From positions 1,530,001 through 1,562,000 of the forward strand of contig NZ_CP147990.1 of the NCBI RefSeq assembly GCF_037902255.1: 32,000 bases of DNA, in the 5' to 3' direction. The translations under genes and the position numbers were made by a program. The stretch is from Candidatus Electrothrix sp. GW3-4 (lineage in GTDB: Bacteria; Desulfobacterota; Desulfobulbia; Desulfobulbales; Desulfobulbaceae). A model generated the notes under the pieces. The model did no database searches and was not told the origin of the DNA. It saw only the letters and a list, made by a program, of their open reading frames with translations. Below, one piece after another: positions 6,327 through 20,565 of the stretch (position 1 is the first letter of the stretch; every line of letters starts with the position of its first letter).

Positions 6327-6935
6327 ATGTCTGACTATCAACCAAAAATATTAGGTTTCCTCTGTAACTGGTGCTGCTACACCGCTGCTGACTCAGCCGG
6401 GGTAGGGCGCTATCAATATCCCCCCAGTCTGCGGGTCGTCCGGATGATGTGTACCGGCAGGCTTGATCCCTCCTTTCCCCTGGAAGGCCTGGCCAACGGA
6501 GCGGACGCGATCTTTGTTGGCGGCTGCCATCCCGGTGAGTGCCATTATATTGATGGCAACTACCATGCCCTGGTCTCTGCTGCCCTGGTTCATGAGACCC
6601 TGGAGCGCATCGGCATCAGCAAGGACCGCTTTCTCATCGACTGGGCCTCGGCTGCAGAAGGCCCGAACTTTGTCAAGATCATCACCCGCTTTACCGAGCA
6701 GGCTGCCGAACTGGGGCCCTTGGGTCAGGCAGAGGGAATGGATCAGGAGGAGCTGCGGCAAAAGCTGCTCAAGGCTGCTGAAGTGGCCCGGAATAAGAAG
6801 GTCCGCACCAATTTGATCAGTGCCAGCCGGGCCATGATGAAGAGCGGTGACTTCTCCCGGCCCGCCATTGCCGACCTGGTTGCGGCCAAGTGTGATAAGA
6901 ATCTGACCGCTTTGCTTGGGGGGGGAGCTGTATGA
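6327..6935 (+). CDS. mvhD: MvhD/FlpD-family protein (methyl-viologen-reducing hydrogenase delta subunit-like)
   Basis: 202 aa. KILGFLCNWCCYTAAD...VRMMCTGRLDPSF...GADAIFVGGCHPGECHY is the MvhD signature. GGAGAGAG RBS upstream. The stop overlaps the next start (ATGA, 6932-6935). Confidence 0.85.
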   Translation: MSDYQPKILGFLCNWCCYTAADSAGVGRYQYPPSLRVVRMMCTGRLDPSFPLEGLANGADAIFVGGCHPGECHYIDGNYHALVSAALVHETLERIGISKDRFLIDWASAAEGPNFVKIITRFTEQAAELGPLGQAEGMDQEELRQKLLKAAEVARNKKVRTNLISASRAMMKSGDFSRPAIADLVAAKCDKNLTALLGGGAV

Positions 6936-9900
6936 GTATGACCGTATCCCTGACCATCAACGGCCAGCCGTTCCGTCTGGCTGCTGACCAGATCATCCTG
7001 GCTGCGGCCAAAGAGGCGGGGATTGAAATTCCCCATCTCTGCCACCTGCCAGGAAAGAGCGATGCCGACCCACCCTGTCTGCTCTGCCTGGTGGAGGTGA
7101 ACGGAAAACGAGCACGGGCCTGCGTAACCCGGATTGCCGAGGGTATGGTGATAGAGACCGAGACGCCAGCATTGGTCGAGCACCGCAAGGAACGGTTGGG
7201 CCAGCTGGCCGCTTGCCATTACGGCGACTGTAAGGCCCCATGCAGCCTGGCCTGCCCAGGCTCGATCAACGTCCAGGGCTATATCAGTCTGATCGGCCAG
7301 CAACAGTTCAGCGCCGCCCTCCAGTTGATCCGGGAGAAGAATCCCCTGCCCGGCATTGTCTGCCGGGTCTGTCCGACCTTTTGCGAGCATACCTGCCGTC
7401 GTGCCCTGCTGGATGAGGCCATTGCCATCAACAACCTGAAACGCTTTGCCTTTGATGCTGCATTTCAGCATCCCCTGCCAGCGGAGAAGGTAGCCCCGGC
7501 CACGGCTCATAAGGCAGCGATCATCGGTGGCGGTCCTACCGGTCTGAGTGCGGCCTGGTTCCTGCGCAAGCAGGGCCACAGCGTCACCATTTTCGAGGCT
7601 GGTCCGGCCCTGGGTGGGGCAGCCCGCACCGCCATTCCTGCCTTTAAGCTGCCCAAGGAAAATCTGGCCCGGGAGATTGAAACTGTCCTTTCCCTGGGAG
7701 TTGAGGTCAGGACCCGCACTGCCTGGGGCCGGGATTTTTCCCTGACCGATCTCCAGCAGCAGGGCTTTGGGGCGATCTTCATTGCCACGGGTCTTGCTGG
7801 GCATAAAAAATTAAGCGTACCAGGCAACGAGCTGGTCCAGGACGGCCTGGCATTCCTTGCCCAGGTCAATCAGGGCAGCCTGACCTCCCTGGCTGGCAAG
7901 GTCTTGGTGGTCGGGGGCAGCAAGGTCGCCATTGAGGCGGCCCGCACGGCCCTGCGCCTGGGCGCAGATGAGGTTCTGCTGATCCATGATCGGCCTGCGG
8001 TGCGCATGACGGCTTATGAGAAAGATATTCGGGCGGCGCAGGGAGAACAGGTCCAGCTGCAGATGCTGACCGCCCTGCTGGCGGTCCGGCAGGAAGATGA
8101 GACTACACTGAGCGCCGAGCTGACCCGAACAGAGCTTGTGGATGATGATGTGCGGAGCATGCCGGTGGCGAGAGAGGGTTCCTCGCTGCGCTGGCAGGGC
8201 GGCCTCATCCTCAACTGCCGGGGGCGGCAGGCGGATGAGGTCTTGCTCTCTTTTGGCGAGCTGGAGAGTAGGCTGGAGCTCACCCCGAAAAAGACCCTCA
8301 AGGTCAGGGTGGCCACCATGGAGACCAATCTGCCCGGCGTCTATGCGGGTGGCGAGGTGGCCAGCGGGCCGCGCTCGGTGATTCAGGCGATCAATGCGGG
8401 CCGTAAGGCCGCTGAGGCCATCCATCGTCAGTTTGGCGGGGCAGAGCTGGGGGTGGCAGACGGCCGCTTCAACTTCAGCAAGGGCCGCAGCTTGGATGCC
8501 GTGGACATGGGGAATTATAGGGGCAGGGCGATCCAGGCACGAACCGTGCTGCCGGAGCGGGCAGGAAAAGAACGTTGCCGCGATTTCAGTCAGACCGAGC
8601 TGGGCTATACGGAAGAAATGGCACTGCGTGAGGCCCGGCGTTGCCTGGAATGCGGCTGCACCGGTCTGAGTAAGTGCGAGCTGCGACCTCTCTGCCGGGA
8701 TCATAAGGTCTCGGCAAGATCGGCTCCCAGCCGACAACGGGGTGAGGTGGACCATTCCCATCCCTTTATCCGTCTTGATGCGGATCGCTGTATCGGCTGC
8801 CAACGCTGCCAGCGCTCCTGCGAGTTTGATGCCTTTGTTTTCAAACAGGGCGACCCGGTGCCCTTGCTGACCATCAAGGGTAACTGTGTCTCCTGCGGGG
8901 CCTGCGTCGATGCCTGCCCTACCGGTGCCCTGACCAAGAAGCAGCTGACCTTGCCCCTGTTGCCCGCTGAGGCCGAACAGGTGCGTAGCGTTTGTACCTA
9001 CTGCGGCACGGGCTGCTCTGTGGATATTGCCGTGAAAAACAGTACCATCATCGAGATCAAGGCCTTGGTCGACGCCCCACCCAATAACGGCGATCTCTGC
9101 GTCAAGGGCCGCTTTGGCTTTGACTTCTATCGTCATCCTGAGCGCCTGACCAGGCCCCTGATCCGGGAACGGCTGGACCAGCCCTTTCGCCAGGCAAGCT
9201 GGCAAGAGGCCCTGGCCTTTGCTGCGGCAGGCTTCAGGCGTATCCAGGAAGAGCAGGGGCCGGAGGCCCTCGGGATCCTCTCCTCGTCCCGTTGCGAGAA
9301 CGAGGTTAACTACCTGGCCCAAAAGTTCTGTCGGACCGTGTTCCGCAGTAACTCGGTGGATAACTGTGCCCGGGTCTGCCATGCCCCGTCGGTGAGCGGC
9401 CTGCGCATTGCTCTGGGCAGTGGGGCCGCCACCAACGCCCTGGCAGACATCGAAGGTGCTGAGGTGCTGCTGATCAGCGGCTCCAATCTGGCTGAGGCCC
9501 ATCCGGTAGTGGGGATGAAGGTGCGTCGTGCCCTGCACAAGGGGGCCCGGCTGATCGTCATTGACCCGCGTCAAACCGAGATGGCCCGGCTGGCCGACAT
9601 CCACCTCCAGCTTATTCCCGGCACCAACGTCCCCCTGCTCAACTCCCTGCTCCACGCCATTCTGGATGAGGGCCTGGAGGACAAGGGCTTCGTTGCTGCC
9701 CGGACCGAGAACCTGGACCGAGTACGCGAGCATGTGGCTGCCTATGCGCCAGAGGCCATGGCCGAGCAGACCGGAGTTGCTGCGGAGCTGGTCCGCCAGG
9801 CGGCCCGGCTCTATTGTGCGACCACCAAGGGCATGATCCTCTACGGGCTGGGCATGACCGAGCACCGTAACGGTACCCAGGGGGTGATGGGTCTGGCCAA

Positions 9901-11062
9901 TATCGCCCTGGCCTCCGGCAATGTGGGACGACGCAACGCAGGCATCTGCCCCCTGCGGGGGCAGAATAACGTCCAGGGCTCCTGCGATATGGGGGCCCTG
10001 CCCTATGTCTATTCCGGGTATCAGGATGTGGGGGATGAGGCCGCCTGGAAACGGATGAGCAGGAACTGGGGCATGGAGCTCCCTGAAACCGCAGGCCTGA
10101 CCGAGCCGGAAATGTACGAGGCTGCCCGCAAGGGCAGGTTCAAGGGGCTGTACTGCATCGGCTATGACCCGCTCCATACTCAGGCCGACGTCCATAATAT
10201 TCGTGCTGCCTTTGCCCAGCTGGACATGGTGGTGGTCCAGGATATCTTCCGGACCAAGACCTGTGAGATGGCCCATGTGGTCCTGCCTGCAGCTTGCTTT
10301 TACGAGAAGGACGGTACCTTTACCAATGCCGAGCGGCGGATTCGGCGTATCCGTAAGGCCGTAGACCCGCCCGGTGAGGCCCGGCCTGACTGGCAGATCG
10401 TCTGTGATCTGGCCCAGGTAATGGGTCAGACTATGGCACAGACTATGGGGCAGGATACAGGGCAGGCTATGACCTATCCTGATGCGGCCGCAGTGATGGA
10501 TGAGATCGCGGCCTGTTCTCCCTTCATAGCTGGCGTCAGCTATGCCCGTCTGGAAGGGGAGGGGCTGGTCTGGCCCTGCCCGAGCAGCGAGCATCCCGGT
10601 ACCCCGATCCTCCATCAAGAGGATTTCACCCGGGGCAAGGGCTGGTTCTCGGTCCTGGCCAATGTCGAGACCCTGGAACGGCCTGATGCAGACTACCCCC
10701 TCATCCTGGTCACAGGGCGGCGACGGGAGCATTACAACAACGGCTCCATGACCCGCCGTTGCGCCGGTTTGATCAAGCTGCTGCCAGAGGAACAACTGGA
10801 TATTCATCCAGCGGATGCTGCCCGGCTCGGTATCAGCGACGGCCAGCAGGTATGGGTGCGCTCCCGGCGGGCCGAGCTGGAGATCACAGCCTGCGTGACC
10901 GAGCGCTGTCGGCCCGGTTCGGTATTCATGGCCTTTCACCATGAGGAGCCGTTGACCAACCTGCTTACCAGTCCGGGCCTGGATGAAATCGCCCTGACCC
11001 CGGAGTACAAGGCCTGTGCGGTCAGTATTAGCCCCGTAACTCCTCCGGGTGACGGGGCATAA
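6932..11062 (+). CDS. fdhA: fusion protein: 2Fe-2S ferredoxin-like + GltD-like NAD(P)H/FAD module + 4Fe-4S + molybdopterin formate-dehydrogenase alpha-like (Cys type)
   Basis: 1376 aa. N-terminal Cys cluster CHLPG..CLLCLVEV..AC. GltD-like Rossmann motifs AAIIGGGPTGLSAAW and VLVVGGSKVAIEAA. Ferredoxin motifs CIGCQRCQRSC and CVSCGACVDACP. MopB 4Fe-4S motif CTYCGTGCSV. Active-site string NCARVCHAPSV, with TGC (9377-9379) where Sec/Cys sits, followed by His. C-terminal molybdopterin-binding barrel region. Confidence 0.85.
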   Translation: MSMTVSLTINGQPFRLAADQIILAAAKEAGIEIPHLCHLPGKSDADPPCLLCLVEVNGKRARACVTRIAEGMVIETETPALVEHRKERLGQLAACHYGDCKAPCSLACPGSINVQGYISLIGQQQFSAALQLIREKNPLPGIVCRVCPTFCEHTCRRALLDEAIAINNLKRFAFDAAFQHPLPAEKVAPATAHKAAIIGGGPTGLSAAWFLRKQGHSVTIFEAGPALGGAARTAIPAFKLPKENLAREIETVLSLGVEVRTRTAWGRDFSLTDLQQQGFGAIFIATGLAGHKKLSVPGNELVQDGLAFLAQVNQGSLTSLAGKVLVVGGSKVAIEAARTALRLGADEVLLIHDRPAVRMTAYEKDIRAAQGEQVQLQMLTALLAVRQEDETTLSAELTRTELVDDDVRSMPVAREGSSLRWQGGLILNCRGRQADEVLLSFGELESRLELTPKKTLKVRVATMETNLPGVYAGGEVASGPRSVIQAINAGRKAAEAIHRQFGGAELGVADGRFNFSKGRSLDAVDMGNYRGRAIQARTVLPERAGKERCRDFSQTELGYTEEMALREARRCLECGCTGLSKCELRPLCRDHKVSARSAPSRQRGEVDHSHPFIRLDADRCIGCQRCQRSCEFDAFVFKQGDPVPLLTIKGNCVSCGACVDACPTGALTKKQLTLPLLPAEAEQVRSVCTYCGTGCSVDIAVKNSTIIEIKALVDAPPNNGDLCVKGRFGFDFYRHPERLTRPLIRERLDQPFRQASWQEALAFAAAGFRRIQEEQGPEALGILSSSRCENEVNYLAQKFCRTVFRSNSVDNCARVCHAPSVSGLRIALGSGAATNALADIEGAEVLLISGSNLAEAHPVVGMKVRRALHKGARLIVIDPRQTEMARLADIHLQLIPGTNVPLLNSLLHAILDEGLEDKGFVAARTENLDRVREHVAAYAPEAMAEQTGVAAELVRQAARLYCATTKGMILYGLGMTEHRNGTQGVMGLANIALASGNVGRRNAGICPLRGQNNVQGSCDMGALPYVYSGYQDVGDEAAWKRMSRNWGMELPETAGLTEPEMYEAARKGRFKGLYCIGYDPLHTQADVHNIRAAFAQLDMVVVQDIFRTKTCEMAHVVLPAACFYEKDGTFTNAERRIRRIRKAVDPPGEARPDWQIVCDLAQVMGQTMAQTMGQDTGQAMTYPDAAAVMDEIAACSPFIAGVSYARLEGEGLVWPCPSSEHPGTPILHQEDFTRGKGWFSVLANVETLERPDADYPLILVTGRRREHYNNGSMTRRCAGLIKLLPEEQLDIHPADAARLGISDGQQVWVRSRRAELEITACVTERCRPGSVFMAFHHEEPLTNLLTSPGLDEIALTPEYKACAVSISPVTPPGDGA
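10421..10468 (+). repeat. in-frame degenerate 12-nt tandem repeat x4 inside the fdhA-like gene
   Basis: ATGGGTCAGACT ATGGCACAGACT ATGGGGCAGGAT ACAGGGCAGGCT, encoding MGQT MAQT MGQD TGQA. Confidence 0.8.
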
Positions 11063-13701: not shown

Positions 13702-15026
13702 ATGCTGCCACTGTCACAGGAAGATCAGGAATTGCTGAGCAGGTTGAATAGTAGGCCCGACCTGAAAAATCGTGTAAAATCAGTTTTATCTATAGCATGT
13801 GATGACGGAGATGGAATTGTAAGGGCAGATGAAGCGGAAAGTCGGATTATCGAGGAAATTCGACGCATGGGCAACGATGTGCTTACAGAATGGGCGGAGA
13901 GCCGAGTTGAAAAATCCGGGACGGATTTTCCGACGGACGGTGATATTACTCGCAGCGGTCAAAAAAAATCCATTGGCACAGCACATTCGGAAAGATAAGC
14001 GTCTTCGAGCAGATATATAAACAACAGGGAAAGCGACACCGACCGTTCAGTCGGAGTGCCGGAATAACCTGCCGGTGCTGTTCCCTGCCTCTGCAGCGAG
14101 CTGTGACCGATTTCGGTGCGGATCACTCTTTCGGTCGTGTTTCGGACAAACTGCTGGAACATTACGGGATAACTTTACCGACGAGCACTGTCCGCAACAT
14201 CACGGAAATTCACGCTCAACAAATATATGAAAGACGCCGTCGAGAAAGGATAGAAGAATATCCGGCTGTAACAGGACGAGATTGTGTAATCGCAGAGACG
14301 GACGGCAGCATGGTCCCCATTGTCGTGACGGATAGCAATGCCGAAGACCGGCGCAAAGGCAAAGAGTATGTTTGGAAAGAAGCACGCCTGAGTATTGCGC
14401 ATGTTCCCGGCGATACGACGCTCAAGTTCGGAGTGGAATTCCGGGAAGGAGTGGACGAGGCGGGAAAGGAGTTTTTCGACAGCGCGTGCCGGGCTGGATT
14501 TGGTTGGGGAACGTATCTGCATGCCGTAGGCGACGGTGCCTCGTGGATTGTCGGACAGGTGAAAAAACGATTCGGTCAGCAGGGAAATTATCTTGTCGAT
14601 TTCTATCATCTTTGCGAATACCTGGAAGGTACTGCACCGGCATTTCTCGGGAAAAGTGAAAAAGTTTCATGGGTCGCTCGGCAGAAAGAATTCCTGAAAT
14701 CGGGGCATACGGAAAAAGTGACCGAAGCATTGCGACCGCATCTTGAGCCGGACACGACGGAGGATCGGAATGCGCCTGTCCGCCGTTGCCTGCGTTATTT
14801 GCTTAACCGTCCGGGACAGTTCGATTATCCGGGCGCTCAGGCACGCGGTCTGCCTGTCGGTTCAGGTGAAATAGAGAGTGCGCACCGATATATTATTCAG
14901 GAACGTCTGAAAATCGCCGGTGCATGGTGGACGACGGAAAACGCCCGGTTTATGCTTGCTCTGAGGGTTGATCGTGCCGATGGATACTGGAACAGGTATT
15001 GGGAAGGAGTAAGCCGGGCGGCATAG
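13702..15026 (+). pseudogene. IS transposase split into two frames at an A8 run (a -1 shift restores a ~441-aa protein)
   Basis: The upstream frame (13702...) reads ..TRSGQKK and stops at 13996-13998. The -1 frame is open from 13944 and reads KKIHWHSTFGKISVFEQ...LQRAVTDFGADHSF through to TAG 15024-15026. The two frames overlap across the run AAAAAAAA at 13961-13968. This is either a 1-nt indel or programmed/transcriptional slippage. Confidence 0.65.
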
Positions 15027-15068: not shown

Positions 15069-15740
15069 ATGTCCAGTTCAACTGAGTTCCTGCTCTATGT
15101 CACGGTGTACCGCTTAAGCGTGCTGGCTATCGGTGCGCTTTCCATTTATCTGGGGTTCCGTCTCTTTAATCGTCCTGCCGAGCTTGCTCGCTCCGGGTTG
15201 GGGACGGCTTCGGCAGAGGTTGAGTCAAAGCTGTTTACCTTACGCGTGACTGATTTTTGGCCCGGAGCCTACTTCGCTTTGTTCGGCACAGTTCTCATTG
15301 GAATTATGCTGTGGCAGGGGCCGCCGGAGATGAAGACAGAGTCTGTTCATGAAAAAACTGCTGCGGGTGAAAAAACGATTGATACTGACTTGATAAGAGC
15401 TGCTCCAGGAATTAATCTTGAGGGTGTATCGGCTCCTGCTGGTTCACAGTCTCAACGATCTGATGTTAAGCAGGAGTTGGGCAAACTAGGTCAGGCAGGT
15501 ATGATTTCTGTTGAAGCGGCTGAGTCCTTTGCGAATATTGCCAGGATGTGGCAGAAAGAAGGACGTATCGGCGAGGCTCTGGCAATGGCGCGCTTGGCTT
15601 ATTTGTACGGGCCGGAGATCGACAAGGCTGCCCATCTTTCTCTGCTTGCGGAGTTGCTGGAGGCGAACGGAAGAACTCAGGATGCAGCCGATGCCCGTGC
15701 TGCGTTGGAAGAAATGCGGCAAAAGGGCGAAGGGGAGTAA
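15069..15740 (+). CDS. membrane protein with two N-terminal TM helices and a TPR-like helical C-terminus (first gene of the DGR target operon)
   Basis: 223 aa. TM helices LYVTVYRLSVLAIGALSIYLGF and AYFALFGTVLIGIMLW. The C-terminal region (ARMWQKEGRIGEALAMARLAYLYGP..AAHLSLLAELLEANGRTQDAADARAALEEM) looks TPR-like. The stop is 2 nt before the next ATG. Confidence 0.6.
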   Translation: MSSSTEFLLYVTVYRLSVLAIGALSIYLGFRLFNRPAELARSGLGTASAEVESKLFTLRVTDFWPGAYFALFGTVLIGIMLWQGPPEMKTESVHEKTAAGEKTIDTDLIRAAPGINLEGVSAPAGSQSQRSDVKQELGKLGQAGMISVEAAESFANIARMWQKEGRIGEALAMARLAYLYGPEIDKAAHLSLLAELLEANGRTQDAADARAALEEMRQKGEGE

Positions 15741-15742
15741 TC

Positions 15743-17416
15743 ATGCTGGTAAGGTTTCTGTATATTCTGCTCGTTCTGTCAATTGCGCTTCCGGTGCAGG
15801 CCGCTTCTCCCTATGGTCGTTTTCACGCCTTGGTGATTGGTAATGAAAACTACAGACATCTCAAGACGCTGAATACTCCTATAGAGGATGCCGAGGCGGT
15901 GGCCGAGCTGTTACAAGATCAGTACGGATTTGACGTTGAGTTATTGCCGGATGCTACGTGGAAGCAGACTATGAGAGCGATCTCCGGGTTGCGGGTAACA
16001 GCAAATCAAGAGTCGGATAATCTGCTGATTTACTATGCCGGTCATGGGTATCTCAACAAAAAGACAGGGGTTGAATATTGGCAGCCAGTCGATGCTGAGA
16101 GAGATAATGATATCTACTGGATTCCGACATCAAGAATTACCAGTATGCTGAAAGAGATTCGGGCTAAACATGTGTTGGTGGTGGCTGATTCCTGCTATTC
16201 CGGCAGCCTGCTGACACGGGATTCCGGGGCGAAACTGCCGGACGGGTCAGGACTGGATGAACTGCTCCGGCGGATGCAGGAGAGACGTTCCCGCACCGCC
16301 CTGACCTCGGGCGGTGAAGAGCCGGTGTGGGATGCTGGCGGAGGAAATCATTCGGTGTTTGCCAAGGCGTTTCTTGATGCTTTGCGGGAGAATCGAAAAA
16401 TTCTGGACGGATATACCATCTTTGATCGGATCAGACGACCGGTCGCTTTGAATGCTCCGCAGACACCTCAGTACGGGGATATTCGGATGACAGGCCATGA
16501 GTGGGGTGATTTTTTGTTGGTGCCCAAGGAGTTGCAGAATATAGAGATTCCTGATTTTGTCGCGTCGCTTGCTGGTTTTGCCACCAGAGATAATTCTCGG
16601 CAGAACAAAGAACCTCAACAGGGCGATCCTTTCATCGACCCAACCACCGGCATGGAGTTGGTATATATCCCCAAGGGATGTTTTCAGATGGGGCAGACAG
16701 TTGAGGGAAAACAACAAATTATTGCCGAGGCTGGACAGGAGACTTACGACTCATACTATGAGGACGAACTTCCCCGGCATAAGGTGTGCGTGGATGGCTT
16801 CTGGATGGGAAAGTACGAAATGACCCAGGGGCAATGGAAGCAGATTATGGGCAAAAATCCGGCCAAATTTAAAAAGGGTGACAAGTATCCGGTGGAGCAG
16901 GTATCTTGGGAGGATGTGCAGAAGTTCATTGGTGAGCTAAATAAGAGAGCTGGTAAGAAATACCGTTTGCCCACTGAGGCGGAATGGGAGTATGCGGCTA
17001 GGGCCGGGACAACGACGGTACGGCATTGGGGGAATGATATTTCCTGTGATAAGGCGATGTATGACAACTATTCAGAAACGGATAACTGTGCCGAGTATGT
17101 CAGAAAACGAGGATTTCAGAATGGTTCCACCGCGCCAGTAGGAAAATATCCCGAGAATGATTTTCACCTGCATGATATGTTGGGGAATGTCTGGGAATGG
17201 TGTGCGGACTGGTATGACGAGAAATATTATGCTGAATGTAAGAAGCACGGTGTTACGAATAATCCGGTGGGCCCTTCGTCAGGCTCCGACCGCGTGATTC
17301 GCGGCGGCAGCTGGAGCAATGACCCGAGGCTCGTGCGTTCGGCGAATCGCCTCAGGAACACGCCTGGCTATCGCTACTTCAGCTTGGGCTTTCGGCTTGC
17401 TCTCCCAGATCAGTAA
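15743..17416 (+). CDS. secreted caspase-like (peptidase C14) + FGE-sulfatase/C-type-lectin-fold protein; DGR variable (target) protein
   Basis: Start at ATG 15743 (GGGGAG RBS). The 15548 start in the ORF track overlaps the preceding gene. Signal peptide MLVRFLYILLVLSIALPVQA/AS. Caspase dyad motifs LLIYYAGHG and VLVVADSCYSG. FGE-sulfatase domain GMELVYIPKGCFQMG...WEYAARAG...GNVWEWCADWY...RVIRGGSWSNDPRLVRSANR....LGFRLA, with the VR at its end. Confidence 0.85.
   Translation: MLVRFLYILLVLSIALPVQAASPYGRFHALVIGNENYRHLKTLNTPIEDAEAVAELLQDQYGFDVELLPDATWKQTMRAISGLRVTANQESDNLLIYYAGHGYLNKKTGVEYWQPVDAERDNDIYWIPTSRITSMLKEIRAKHVLVVADSCYSGSLLTRDSGAKLPDGSGLDELLRRMQERRSRTALTSGGEEPVWDAGGGNHSVFAKAFLDALRENRKILDGYTIFDRIRRPVALNAPQTPQYGDIRMTGHEWGDFLLVPKELQNIEIPDFVASLAGFATRDNSRQNKEPQQGDPFIDPTTGMELVYIPKGCFQMGQTVEGKQQIIAEAGQETYDSYYEDELPRHKVCVDGFWMGKYEMTQGQWKQIMGKNPAKFKKGDKYPVEQVSWEDVQKFIGELNKRAGKKYRLPTEAEWEYAARAGTTTVRHWGNDISCDKAMYDNYSETDNCAEYVRKRGFQNGSTAPVGKYPENDFHLHDMLGNVWEWCADWYDEKYYAECKKHGVTNNPVGPSSGSDRVIRGGSWSNDPRLVRSANRLRNTPGYRYFSLGFRLALPDQ
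17281..17412 (+). repeat. DGR variable repeat (VR), last 132 nt of the target gene
   Basis: Aligns to the TR at 18986-19093. The 70-nt left flank and 25-nt right flank are identical except for 5 positions, all at TR adenines. The central segment is 33 nt in the VR versus 9 nt (AACAACAAC) in the TR. Confidence 0.85.
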
Positions 17417-17427
17417 CGCAGGGGTTT

Positions 17428-17440
17428 GGGGCGAAGCCCC
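17428..17440 (+). other. GC-rich hairpin 16 nt downstream of the VR (candidate DGR target-recognition hairpin and/or terminator)
   Basis: GGGGC-gaa-GCCCC, followed 6 nt later by TTTTTT (17447-17452). Confidence 0.4.
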
Positions 17441-18020: not shown

Positions 18021-19002
18021 TCCAGATAATCTCCGTCTGGCCTTTTGTAAGGCTGCACGAGGTAAACAGGACAGAGCCGAGGCTGTCAGATTTCGTGCGG
18101 ATTTTGAACGGAATATTCAAAAATTGCACAGACAGCTCCTGCTTGAGGAACCGGATATCGGCCATTATCGTTTTTTCACCGTTTGTGATCCTAAACCACG
18201 CCGTATCTGTGCGGCTTCGTTCCCGGAGCGGGTGCTGCATCATGCGATTATGAACGTCTGCGAACCGGCCCTGAACGCCTATCACATTTATGATACTTAT
18301 GCCTGCCTGCCCGGTAGAGGCCAGTATAAGGCCCTGGATCGTGCGGTTAAATTTTCAGGTTCATCGTCCTGGTATTTACAACTTGATATCAGACACTATT
18401 TTGATTCCATTGATCATCGCATCATGCTTGATCTGCTGAAGAGAAGATTCAAGGACAAGCAGCTGCTCAACCTTTTTGCCCAACTGCTGGACAGCTTTCA
18501 CAGTCGGCCCGGCAAAGGTCTGCCCATTGGCAACCTGATTTCCCAGCATCTTGCCAATTACTACCTCGGTATATTTGACCATTGGATTAAGGAGGAGCGG
18601 CGTTATAAAAAATATTTGCGTTACATGGACGATTTCGTTCTGTTTGGTCAAAGTAAGGAAAAATTACGTCAGGAGCTTTGCCGGATTGAAGAATATCTTG
18701 AGAGAACCCTGCAATTACAGTTGCGGCAACCGATAAAGCTTAATCGTTGCCGCCTTGGAGTGACCTTTCTCGGTTATCGCGTTTTTCCAAGCGGGCTACG
18801 CCTGTCGGCCCAGAGTAAAAAACGCTTCATACGTAAACTGAAACAGTATGAGGAAATGTATCAGCTCGGTATATGGGGTGAAGATACTCTAAGCAGACAT
18901 GTTGAACCGCTGATAGAATTTACCAGACACGCCAAGGCAGATGGTTTTCGCCGAACTGTGCTGGAACGATACGGGGGCTGTCCTGAGGCTCCAACCGCGT
19001 GA
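17983..19002 (+). CDS. DGR-type reverse transcriptase
   Basis: 339 aa with RT motifs PKPRRICAASFPERVLHHAIMNV, YLQLDIRHYFDSIDH, LPIGNLISQHLANYYL (DGR hallmark [ILV]GxxxSQ), YLRYMDDFVLF (YMDD) and VTFLGYRV. The stop codon TGA 19000-19002 lies inside the TR. Confidence 0.9.
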   Translation: MKRLNNLYPQITDPDNLRLAFCKAARGKQDRAEAVRFRADFERNIQKLHRQLLLEEPDIGHYRFFTVCDPKPRRICAASFPERVLHHAIMNVCEPALNAYHIYDTYACLPGRGQYKALDRAVKFSGSSSWYLQLDIRHYFDSIDHRIMLDLLKRRFKDKQLLNLFAQLLDSFHSRPGKGLPIGNLISQHLANYYLGIFDHWIKEERRYKKYLRYMDDFVLFGQSKEKLRQELCRIEEYLERTLQLQLRQPIKLNRCRLGVTFLGYRVFPSGLRLSAQSKKRFIRKLKQYEEMYQLGIWGEDTLSRHVEPLIEFTRHAKADGFRRTVLERYGGCPEAPTA

Positions 19003-19093
19003 TTCGCGGCGGCAGCTGGAACAATAACCCGAGGAACGTGCGTTCGGCGAATCGCAACAACAACTTGGGCTTTCGGCTTGCTCTCCCAGCTCA
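18986..19093 (+). repeat. DGR template repeat (TR), 108 nt
   Basis: Invariant, adenine-rich copy of the VR. In the VR frame it encodes NRVIRGGSWNNNPRNVRSANRNNNLGFRLA with 7 AAC and 1 AAT Asn codons. It starts 17 nt before the RT stop. Confidence 0.85.
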
Positions 19094-19334: not shown

Positions 19335-19616
19335 ATGAAAGTCGCAAATCCCCTCTACGATGTCGTGTTCAAATACCTGATGCAGGATATGCGGGTTGCC
19401 AAGCTGGTCATATCCAACATCATTGAACAGGAGATGGAAGATGAAATTCTGGAGCAATTAGCAACTCAGGAGCGGGTAATAGCTTACGAAAGGGCGGAAA
19501 AAGAGAAAGCGGAAGTTGAAAAAAGGAAAGCGGAAGCGGAGAAAGAAAAAGCGGAAGCGGAAGCGGAAAAAGACAGGCTTGAAAAATTATTGAAGCAAGC
19601 AGGTATTGAGTTTTAA
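19335..19616 (+). CDS. internally deleted paralog of the downstream PD-(D/E)XK (Rpn/YhgA-like) gene
   Basis: 93 aa. The first ~30 aa (MKVANPLYDVVFKYLMQDMRVAKLVISNII) parallel the N-terminus of the 19684 gene, then the sequence jumps straight to a K/E/A coiled-coil tail. The nuclease core is missing. Confidence 0.45.
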   Translation: MKVANPLYDVVFKYLMQDMRVAKLVISNIIEQEMEDEILEQLATQERVIAYERAEKEKAEVEKRKAEAEKEKAEAEAEKDRLEKLLKQAGIEF

Positions 19617-19683: not shown

Positions 19684-20565
19684 GTGCAGATAGCGAATCC
19701 GGTGTATGATGTCGTCTTCAAATATCTGATGGCCGACAACAGCATAGCGAAAAAGATCATCTCGCTCATTATCGGCGAGGAAATAGAAAACCTTGATTTT
19801 CAGCCCACGGAATACAGCGATGATGTGGACAAGGGCAACAGGTCGCTCACCGTCTACCGGCTTGACTTCGCGGCGACCGTGCGCCTGCCCGACGGGAGCC
19901 GCAAGCGAATCATCATCGAGATCCAGAAAGCCAAATTCGCCACCGACATCATGCGGTTCCGTAACTATCTCGGTAAACAGTACTCGAACAAAAACAACGT
20001 GTATGAAGAGGGGAACAGATCGAAAGCCTGTCCGATCCTGAGTATTTATTTTCTGGGCCATCGGCTGGACAATGTCCATGTTCCGGTCACTAGGGTGGAG
20101 CGGAAGTATTATGACAACGCCACAGGCGAGGAACTTCCTGTCCGGGAGGAATTTATTGAAAGCCTGACGCATGACAGCTTTGTTATTCAGATTTCCGAAC
20201 TCAGACGGAAGCGGAGAAACCTGTTGGAAAAAGTGCTGGCGGTGTTCGAGCAGCCCGCTTCGGTGAAGACTCCCCATTTTCTTGATATTTCCGAGTCCGA
20301 GTATCCAGCGGAGTACAGGGAGGTGATCCGAAGGCTGATACAAGCCGCTGCTGAACCCCAGGTCAGGCAGACTATGGATGTGGAGGATGAAATCATAGAG
20401 GAACTCGGCAGTCTTGAACGCATTATAGCGGTTCGTGATAAAACGATTGATGATCAGAAAAGGGAACTTGATGACAAGGACAGGGAGCTTAGTGATAAAA
20501 ACAAGGCTCTTGATGATCAAAAAAAGCTCATTGAGGAATTAAAGAGACAGCTTGGTGAAAAATAA
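19684..20565 (+). CDS. PD-(D/E)XK nuclease family protein (Rpn/YhgA-like putative recombination-promoting nuclease/transposase)
   Basis: 293 aa with a GTG start. N-terminus MQIANPVYDVVFKYLM. Core RLDFAATV....RIIIEIQKAKF (D...ExQ motif). C-terminal coiled coil with D/K/E repeats. Confidence 0.6.
   Translation: MQIANPVYDVVFKYLMADNSIAKKIISLIIGEEIENLDFQPTEYSDDVDKGNRSLTVYRLDFAATVRLPDGSRKRIIIEIQKAKFATDIMRFRNYLGKQYSNKNNVYEEGNRSKACPILSIYFLGHRLDNVHVPVTRVERKYYDNATGEELPVREEFIESLTHDSFVIQISELRRKRRNLLEKVLAVFEQPASVKTPHFLDISESEYPAEYREVIRRLIQAAAEPQVRQTMDVEDEIIEELGSLERIIAVRDKTIDDQKRELDDKDRELSDKNKALDDQKKLIEELKRQLGEK

Follow-up and report, generated by a model that had tools for sequence, protein, structure and literature searches.

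Proteins that join a metacaspase to an FGE-sulfatase domain (FGE, formylglycine-generating enzyme) have been reported (PMC3501461), cyanobacterial variable proteins of diversity-generating retroelements (DGRs) can carry orthocaspase N-termini (PMC7517822), and in multicellular bacteria DGR-diversified sensors occur together with caspase-like effectors (PMC7159879, PMC10907252). The basic idea is thus already known, since both the C14-FGE architecture and DGR-diversified caspase-like proteins have been catalogued. In the related EACC1-caspase, Pepco-protease and gasdermin-caspase modules, small proteins encoded upstream have been found by experiment to be cleaved into membrane pores, and the proteases of such modules can bear FGE or DGR-diversified sensors (PMC12642450). 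Here we analysed a window of 32,000 nucleotides of the cable bacterium Candidatus Electrothrix sp. GW3-4 (contig NZ_CP147990.1, positions 1,530,001 to 1,562,000), which holds a DGR whose target gene encodes a Peptidase_C14 (C14) domain and an FGE-type C-lectin-fold domain in one protein (Table 1). An earlier note on this DNA had mentioned surveys of DGR-diversified FGE-type domains joined to caspase-like effectors, and these exist (PMC3501461, PMC7517822, PMC7159879, PMC10907252). Its further statement that no member had been characterised holds for the exported C14-FGE type, but not for the related modules of a protease plus an upstream-encoded effector, which have been dissected biochemically (PMC12642450).

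Our results point to a Sec-exported sensor-plus-protease in the periplasm or envelope, consisting of a variable binder, a caspase-like protease and a membrane partner encoded just upstream, a reading to which we give about an even chance. The target shares with the metacaspase- and orthocaspase-FGE proteins the order C14 then FGE/C-lectin; in that group, too, the C-terminus can be a DGR variable region (VR), and no member has been characterised. The cyanobacterial orthocaspase variable proteins are, as reported, mostly cytosolic, whereas the window protein has a family-wide signal peptide, and it differs from them also by a dedicated partner with two transmembrane (TM) helices and a TPR-like domain, by an HRDC-type DGR without Avd, and by its host, a cable bacterium of the Desulfobulbaceae. 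With the antigen sensor systems (STAND NTPase and MoxR-vWA/VMAP ternary systems), for which invader sensing has been proposed, it has in common a DGR C-lectin/FGS sensor, a caspase-like or trypsin-like effector and a multicellular filamentous host. However, the antigen-sensor cases discussed are cytoplasmic and NTPase-gated, while at the window locus sensor and protease are predicted to be exported, an HRDC accessory gene is present, and Pfam and PADLOC scans found no STAND, MoxR, vWA or adaptor (EAD, Trypco) component. TvpA of Treponema denticola is likewise an exported FGE-fold variable protein, belonging to a DGR with an HRDC accessory gene (PDB 2y3c; PMC5758913). In the window the binder is fused to a C14 protease, and in relatives it is either fused to one or encoded beside it; TvpA, by contrast, is a lipoprotein binder and is not known to have a protease domain. 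As to the EACC1, Pepco and gasdermin modules, the nearest curated bacterial caspase model of the target is NCBIfam 'caspase, EACC1-associated type' (NF047832), at 81.9 bits and thus under its cut-off of 140, but the window partner is not EACC1, Pepco or gasdermin and had no match in Pfam, NCBIfam or PADLOC. It is predicted to span the membrane twice and to carry a TPR-like domain, and the module would act in the periplasm. In the literature searched we found no DGR reported for cable bacteria or Electrothrix, neither an explicitly exported NTPase-free form of these systems nor its 2-TM/TPR-like partner, and no HRDC-type reverse transcriptase (RT) clade recurrently serving exported C14/FGE pairs. 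The window locus and its RT clade point to such a simpler exported version, in which binder and protease are fused or split and sometimes have a membrane partner, and which is small enough for a reconstitution asking if a DGR variable domain can turn on a protease when it binds its ligand.

The listed open reading frame (ORF) of the target has a longer start, at an in-frame GTG at 15548. However, the N-termini of homologs line up at the methionine at 15743, from which the protein begins with MLVRFLYILLVLSIALPVQAASPYGRF; GGGGAG lies 6-11 nt 5' of this ATG, and the partner TAA stands 2 nt before it, so that ATG 15743 rather than GTG 15548 is the true start. The leader is made up of MLVR, FLYILLVLSIALP and VQA/AS; it fits the n-, h- and c-regions and the -3/-1 rule, reaches a maximum hydropathy of 2.9 over residues 5-14, and has a counterpart in nearly all full-length homologs, whose hydrophobic N-terminal leaders end AXA-like. 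Beyond the leader, hydropathy revealed no TM segment in the target.

For the protease domain, Pfam Peptidase_C14 (PF00656) gave an E of 1.9e-24 and 87.1 bits against a cut-off of 21.4, and the PADLOC caspase model matched at E 1.1e-10. In an alignment of 38 full-length relatives Asp49 and Asp149 never vary and the catalytic His101 (YYAGHG) and Cys151 (ADSCYSG) hardly do, and the GHG and D-x-C motifs stand at constant spacing in almost every full-length family member. The AlphaFold2 model of the target has a mean pLDDT (predicted local distance difference test) of 83.7, with values >90 over most of residues 21-150, and in a fold search its N-terminal half matched MALT1 paracaspase chains at E 1.6e-12. 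By sequence, too, MALT1 is the one solved structure related to the protease domain (E 1.4e-6, with only residues 29-120 aligned). The two have in common the motifs IGNxNY...D and YYAGHGY as well as the D-x-C catalytic strand, and His101 lines up with the GHG of MALT1. MALT1, which is specific for Arg and becomes active on dimerising, differs from the target in being a cytosolic scaffold protein of eukaryotes that carries death and Ig domains. By analogy with MALT1, and from Asp49 and Asp149, cleavage after Arg or Lys is predicted for the window protease. The C14-FGE architecture is abundant, with >100 strong matches including Electrothrix, Electronema, Nitrospirae and Acidobacteria; at least one copy is present in each cable-bacterium genome sampled, and the leader-bearing C14 module is also found joined to DUF1566/Lcl, SH3, PEGA, PG_binding, CAP, PDZ, TPR and DSBA-like domains.

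The C-terminal domain matched Pfam FGE-sulfatase (PF03781) over residues 305-553 at E 3.2e-49, and the corresponding half of the AlphaFold2 model matched FGE, PvdO and TvpA (2y3c) in a Foldseek search, the FGE structures at E about 1e-18 and TvpA with a TM-score of 0.72 and a root mean square deviation of 2.6 Å. Homologs are publicly named 'SUMF1/EgtB/PvdO family nonheme iron enzyme' or 'formylglycine-generating enzyme' (NCBI, JGI). However, the VR covers the FGE catalytic site, the FGE catalytic cysteine pair (human Cys336/Cys341) is absent, being aligned to a VR Asn and a gap, and the enzyme equivalog NCBIfam models PvdO, EgtB, SenA and OvoA all scored far under their cut-offs, so that the public enzyme name of the homologs is misleading; judged from its sequence, the domain is a ligand binder and not an enzyme. 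The Sec signal peptide, the C14 domain with an intact His/Cys dyad and the diversified FGE/C-lectin-fold domain which the earlier note had read from the sequence all stand, with VQA/AS as the predicted cleavage point. The profile searches and structure prediction proposed there supported Peptidase_C14 and FGE-sulfatase, with matching folds for both.

Comparison of the VR with the template repeat (TR) revealed 9 differences, 9/9 of which fall on TR adenines, and the 81 non-A positions are identical throughout (hypergeometric p = 2e-7). The VR stops 8 nt short of the target stop codon, the two repeats diverge right after CCCAG, and a hairpin follows the VR but not the TR. The RT carries all invariant residues of the clade alignment, including YMDD, and matched thousands of DGR-type RT relatives. 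No Avd gene is present at the DGR locus; in its stead there is an HRDC gene, which also lies upstream of the RT in most related loci. We conclude that the locus is a bona fide HRDC-type DGR, of architecture C of PMC5758913. No further TR- or VR-like copies exist within the window, and an Rfam scan of 13-20 kb gave no match. The 3' end of a paralog (P0008) was considered as a second target of the window TR and ruled out by its many non-adenine differences.

The VR exceeds the TR by 24 nt; in a DGR whose homing restores a full-length VR, the two would be colinear and equal in length. The length of the VR is the canonical FGE length, and the extra segment persists in the TR of both L012 (RT 87% identical) and L014 (RT 59% identical), the closest DGRs that are informative, where it reads CGC AAC AGG AAC ACG CC. 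... CGC AAC AAC AAC. Since these two TRs and the VR are full-length, a deletion between CGCAAC direct repeats has removed 24 nt from the window TR. The segment that the TR lacks opens with CTC in the VR, against AAC in the TRs of the relatives; this looks like an old adenine substitution, so homing came before the TR deletion. No full replacement of the VR has taken place after it, and homing from the present TR would cut 8 codons from the binding loop. The DGR acted formerly, and the present VR is therefore probably frozen, which would make the deleted TR a natural example of DGR fixation.

Table 1. Coordinates of the cassette and the DGR, in window positions.
Feature	Position	Strand	Description	Basis
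Partner gene, 223-aa membrane protein	15069..15740	+	TM helices about 3-33 and 65-82; disordered linker about 83-126; TPR-like helical hairpins 127-221	
DGR target gene, 557-aa protein	15743..17416	+	Signal peptide, Peptidase_C14, linker, FGE/C-lectin-fold domain	
Sec-type signal peptide	15743..15805	+	Residues 1-21; predicted cleavage VQA/AS	Rule-based reading; leader conserved in homologs
Peptidase_C14 (paracaspase/metacaspase-like)	15824..16474	+	Residues 28-244	Pfam, alignment, MALT1 alignment, fold match
Catalytic His101 codon	16043-16045	+		Alignment
Catalytic Cys151 codon	16193-16195	+		Alignment
FGE-sulfatase-type C-lectin-fold domain	16655..17401	+	Residues 305-553	Pfam, human FGE alignment, fold matches
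VR, 127 nt	17282..17408	+	Last ~45 codons of target; holds 24-nt segment (about 17346-17369) missing from TR	TR/VR comparison
GC-rich hairpin GGGGC-GAA-GCCCC, then T-run	17428..17440	+	Directly 3' of VR	Sequence
HRDC-domain accessory gene, 167 aa	17517..18020	+		Pfam HRDC E 2.2e-19
DGR RT, 339 aa	17983..19002	+		RVT_1 E 9e-16
TR, 103 nt	18987..19089	+	22 adenines; overlaps RT stop codon; 24-nt internal deletion, junction about 19051-19058	

The gene directly upstream of the target encodes a protein with two hydrophobic helices by hydropathy, for which AlphaFold2 predicted four or five hairpin helices at 127-221 with pLDDT 75-90. Its top Foldseek matches are all TPR proteins, with a weak E of about 0.01, and no Pfam TPR match was obtained at E 0.01 or better; faint Pfam TPR matches were seen for the partner homolog of L014. 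The loop between the TM helices has five Lys/Arg and the N-tail none, so that under the positive-inside rule the linker and the TPR-like domain are predicted from sequence to lie in the periplasm, the compartment of the exported protease. At 110/111 the linker has an Arg that is semi-conserved and could be the P1 residue recognised by a protease specific for Arg or Lys.

When cable-bacterial loci were compared, with L001/L002 counted as one paralog locus (its partner is 73% identical to the window partner), a partner homolog was found directly upstream of the C14 gene in all eight distinct loci (L001, L003-L007, L010 and L011). Six of the eight have a gap of exactly 2 nt between the two genes; in L001 and L003-L007 there is either a 2-nt gap or a 4-nt overlap. 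Partner and target are predicted to be co-expressed, probably through translational coupling. The pairing is kept whether the C14 protein has an FGE, a DUF1566-like or a truncated C-terminus and is therefore independent of the C-terminal binder, which ties the function of the partner to the protease module. A trait of protease-effector modules, a small gene just upstream of a sensor-fused caspase-like protease and kept with it as a pair, is accordingly present in the eight loci and in L014. A word-index search returned 53 close partner relatives, all Electrothrix-like, but a profile search yielded, at E 1e-10 or better, 344 clusters formed at the 50% identity level, most of them 200-290 aa long and matched over their full length, so the partner family is wider than these relatives. 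The earlier note had described a 2-TM/TPR-like gene whose stop lies 2 nt before the ATG, as is indeed the case although the TPR match is weak, and had left open whether it was an anchor or a partner; its recurrence in 8/8 cable-bacterial loci and in the distant DGR locus L014 strengthens the case for a partner.

Two of the cable-bacterial loci groups deserve a separate description. A contig scan with the partner protein matched one locus, L003, where at 6391-7791 a C14 ORF 83% identical to the window C14 is followed by a frame break and a DUF1566-like ORF ending NRNNNYAVRLVRGGQ; this tail is AAC-rich and resembles an undiversified VR or a TR, and there is no RT on the 8.7-kb L003 contig. A DUF6414 gene (351 aa) precedes the partner in L001 (6257-7312), L002 (1161-2216) and L010 (6202-7257), not in the window, and may be a third component of some cassettes.

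The window RT belongs to a large Desulfobacterota clade of 334-aa RTs that are 56-63% identical to it, and RTs of at least 55% identity number in the hundreds. Among informative loci with an RT at least 56% identical (L013, L014, L018, L019 and the L094 type), a C14 protease is fused to or lies beside a diversified FGE target in 5/5. In L013 (Desulfobacterales HSG16) two leader-bearing C14-FGE targets flank HRDC-RT-TR, with 17 adenine substitutions in both VRs, and L014, from a metagenome-assembled genome of the Desulfobulbaceae, has the window layout: partner homolog, signal peptide-C14-FGE, HRDC, RT and TR. L018 and L019 have separate leader-bearing C14 proteins beside their FGE targets, and in L019 we noted two pairs of FGE target and C14 protein with three VRs. 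The gene order in L094-L099 (Syntrophales) is an exported DUF4384 protein, an exported target with an FGE domain only, HRDC, RT, TR and lastly a C14 protein that is separate and likewise exported. Leaders are thus also found in DGR-linked relatives, fused or split (L013, L014, L019, L087, L094). At or below 51% RT identity the relatives mostly have other FGE-tailed targets, with C14 neighbours in L035, L066/L071 and L084 and a fused form in L087. Taken together, an exported C14 protease and a DGR-diversified exported binder form a recurrent pair, either fused or split.

The relationships of the target differ along its length: its C14 domain shares 83-87% identity with other Electrothrix C14 modules and 25% with DGR-linked relatives, which the VR stretch resembles more closely than any other part does. 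We considered that the FGE domain had been imported together with the DGR, but this was not supported, the non-VR part being closest to other Electrothrix-type proteins: it is 70% identical to P0005, 55% to the E. aestuarii ortholog and 43% to the L014 target. As far as such comparisons go, the pattern fits a DGR that was acquired and then redirected to a gene already in place.

The window is syntenic with Ca. Electrothrix aestuarii CP159373 (L004), and a paralog of the target, 57% identical, is on the same contig, annotated Candidatus Electrothrix sp. GW3-4. Between window 15069-17416 and L004:8001-10327, partner and target are 57-58% identical and the flanking genes 76-99%, and E. aestuarii has a UPF0175/DUF3368 pair at the place of the window HRDC-RT-TR. 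Insertion sequence (IS) and toxin-antitoxin (TA)-like genes surround the cassette, and the gene just 5' of the partner, for an ISKra4-family transposase, is broken into ORFs of 98 aa (13702-13998) and 307 aa (14103-15026), the latter matching profile positions 122-422 of 422; in the Logan assembly L009 the upstream ORF is longer, at least 353 aa, and runs from the contig end. The low identity of the cassette relative to its flanks, together with the ISKra4 remnant, places it in a variable island, and fast divergence amid IS and TA-like genes is the pattern expected of conflict genes.

From these data we infer for the cassette a localisation, specificity, activation mode, substrate and biological role, as follows. 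The variable domain would capture a changing envelope-exposed ligand, such as a protein or glycan of a phage, a competitor or a neighbour cell; multivalent binding would cluster the protease domains, in the way that paracaspases and caspases are activated by proximity; and the activated protease would cut a periplasm-exposed substrate after Arg or Lys, either the partner linker or the ligand. The leading substrate candidate would be the disordered linker of the partner at Arg 110/111, and its cleavage would parallel the protease-activated membrane effectors that are encoded upstream of caspase-like proteases. The cable-bacterial periplasm is continuous along the filament, and the cassette is a candidate for cable-bacterial envelope defence or for regulated filament cell death. 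We also considered a bolder version of this sensor-plus-protease reading, in which the pair is a periplasmic counterpart of cytoplasmic protease-effector immune modules: a DGR-programmable lectin-fold receptor would patrol the periplasm and, once bound to a foreign ligand, switch on an Arg/Lys-specific caspase-like protease, which would cut the linker of the 2-TM protein and release a membrane-active hairpin to depolarise or kill the cell. We regard it as doubtful, but if true it would amount to an NTPase-free envelope 'antibody-caspase-pore' circuit, with an HRDC-type DGR clade specialised in re-tuning it.

Several observations weigh against the proposed sensor-plus-protease. The TPR likeness of the partner is weak (E about 0.01), its topology comes from charge counts only, its linker Arg is about 60% conserved per column, and searches with Pfam, NCBIfam and PADLOC matched it to no known effector family. 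Moreover, cysteine-protease activity is presumed for an exported protein even though the periplasm is oxidising. Eight other cable-bacterial partner-C14 loci, including the syntenic one of E. aestuarii, have no RT nearby; since most cable-bacterial pairs are thus without a DGR, diversification is not essential to the function of the family. At the window locus itself, the 24-nt TR deletion weighs against ongoing diversification, and three Logan assemblies of the same organism, which are consensus sequences, hold the identical protein with one VR sequence. The word 'hypervariable', which the earlier note had applied to the binding domain, is therefore apt for its past, when the DGR rewrote it (9/9 adenines), but probably not for its present state.

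Among other explanations, the target could be a constitutively active degradative protease that is directed by its binder, so that the bound protein is itself degraded and the partner is only an inner-membrane anchor; its roles would be to neutralise phage or toxin proteins entering the periplasm, to remodel the surface or to acquire nutrients. The adhesin-bearing gingipains of Porphyromonas provide a model, being exported caspase-fold proteases (clan CD, family C25) that are Arg/Lys-specific and have C-terminal adhesin or binding domains, and they show that a clan CD protease can be exported with binder domains attached and still work. They differ from the target in their C25 family and their secretion by the type IX system, and they are not known to have DGR diversification or a partner membrane protein. 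Such a role agrees with a layout of binder and protease only, with no NTPase switch or adaptor domain, and with the presence of the same C14 module on many binders (DUF1566, SH3, PEGA, PG_binding, PDZ, CAP), and the TPR-like domain of the partner could serve as a docking site. However, the closest structural relative, MALT1, is a regulated protease activated by dimerisation, the loci with split FGE binder and C14 exclude covalent tethering, and a linkage to one particular membrane protein that is both tight and conserved suggests a role beyond that of an anchor, so that we consider this explanation unlikely. We find rather unlikely, too, that the protein is a housekeeping envelope protease of cable bacteria, acting in protein maturation or turnover or in filament fragmentation, with a self ligand and a DGR that is secondary and decaying. 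The prevalence of cable-bacterial partner-C14 pairs without a DGR, that of E. aestuarii included, the copies in every sampled cable-bacterium genome and the damaged TR would all agree with it, as would the caspase-domain genes of unassigned role that have been tied to ghost cells and filament breakage (PMC12163305). Yet the cassette diverges faster than its flanks (57% vs 76-99%), C-terminal binders are swapped between paralogs, and the RT clade repeatedly targets C14-linked binders in several orders; because of these three features an arms race fits better than a fixed self substrate.

The data contradict the two remaining explanations. That the protein is a cytoplasmic programmed-cell-death metacaspase, its hydrophobic stretch being a membrane anchor or an annotation artefact, would accord with the classical link of bacterial metacaspases to cell death, and N-terminal TM helices are hard to separate from signal peptides (PMC3501461). 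It is nevertheless very improbable given the short h-region, the canonical VQA/A motif, the family-wide leader with AXA-like ends, the lack of any other TM segment in the target, and the fact that in split loci binder and protease each carry a leader of their own. Still harder to credit is a bifunctional maturation protein whose C-terminal domain is a true FGE or a SUMF1/EgtB/PvdO-type iron or copper enzyme. The names given to homologs by NCBI and JGI and the strong Pfam FGE-sulfatase match speak for it, but the positions of the human FGE cysteines are taken by a VR Asn and a gap, the equivalog models stay far under their cut-offs, the region is a VR rewritten by the DGR, and the DGR variable protein TvpA is an equally good structural match.

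Apart from the cassette, we noted downstream of the TR a 93-aa ORF (19335-19616) that is an internally deleted copy of a 305-aa gene, intact in E. aestuarii. It is also a paralog of the adjacent 293-aa gene (19684-20565), which is 99% identical between the two genomes; the E. aestuarii stretch compared is L004:11490-13355. PADLOC, NCBIfam and Pfam assigned no family to these 293-aa and 93-aa ORFs or to the DUF6414-like neighbours. Between 26001 and 28000 the GC content is 0.41-0.42, against 0.50-0.64 elsewhere in the window, with a strong positive GC skew of 0.27-0.30. Finally, a 1043-aa ORF (7811-10942, minus strand) lies antisense within a 1376-aa gene (6932-11062, plus strand) in a region with a GC content of 0.62-0.64; the E. 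aestuarii ortholog of the 1376-aa gene has Fer4 and Pyr_redox domains, and the antisense ORF is probably a compositional artefact.

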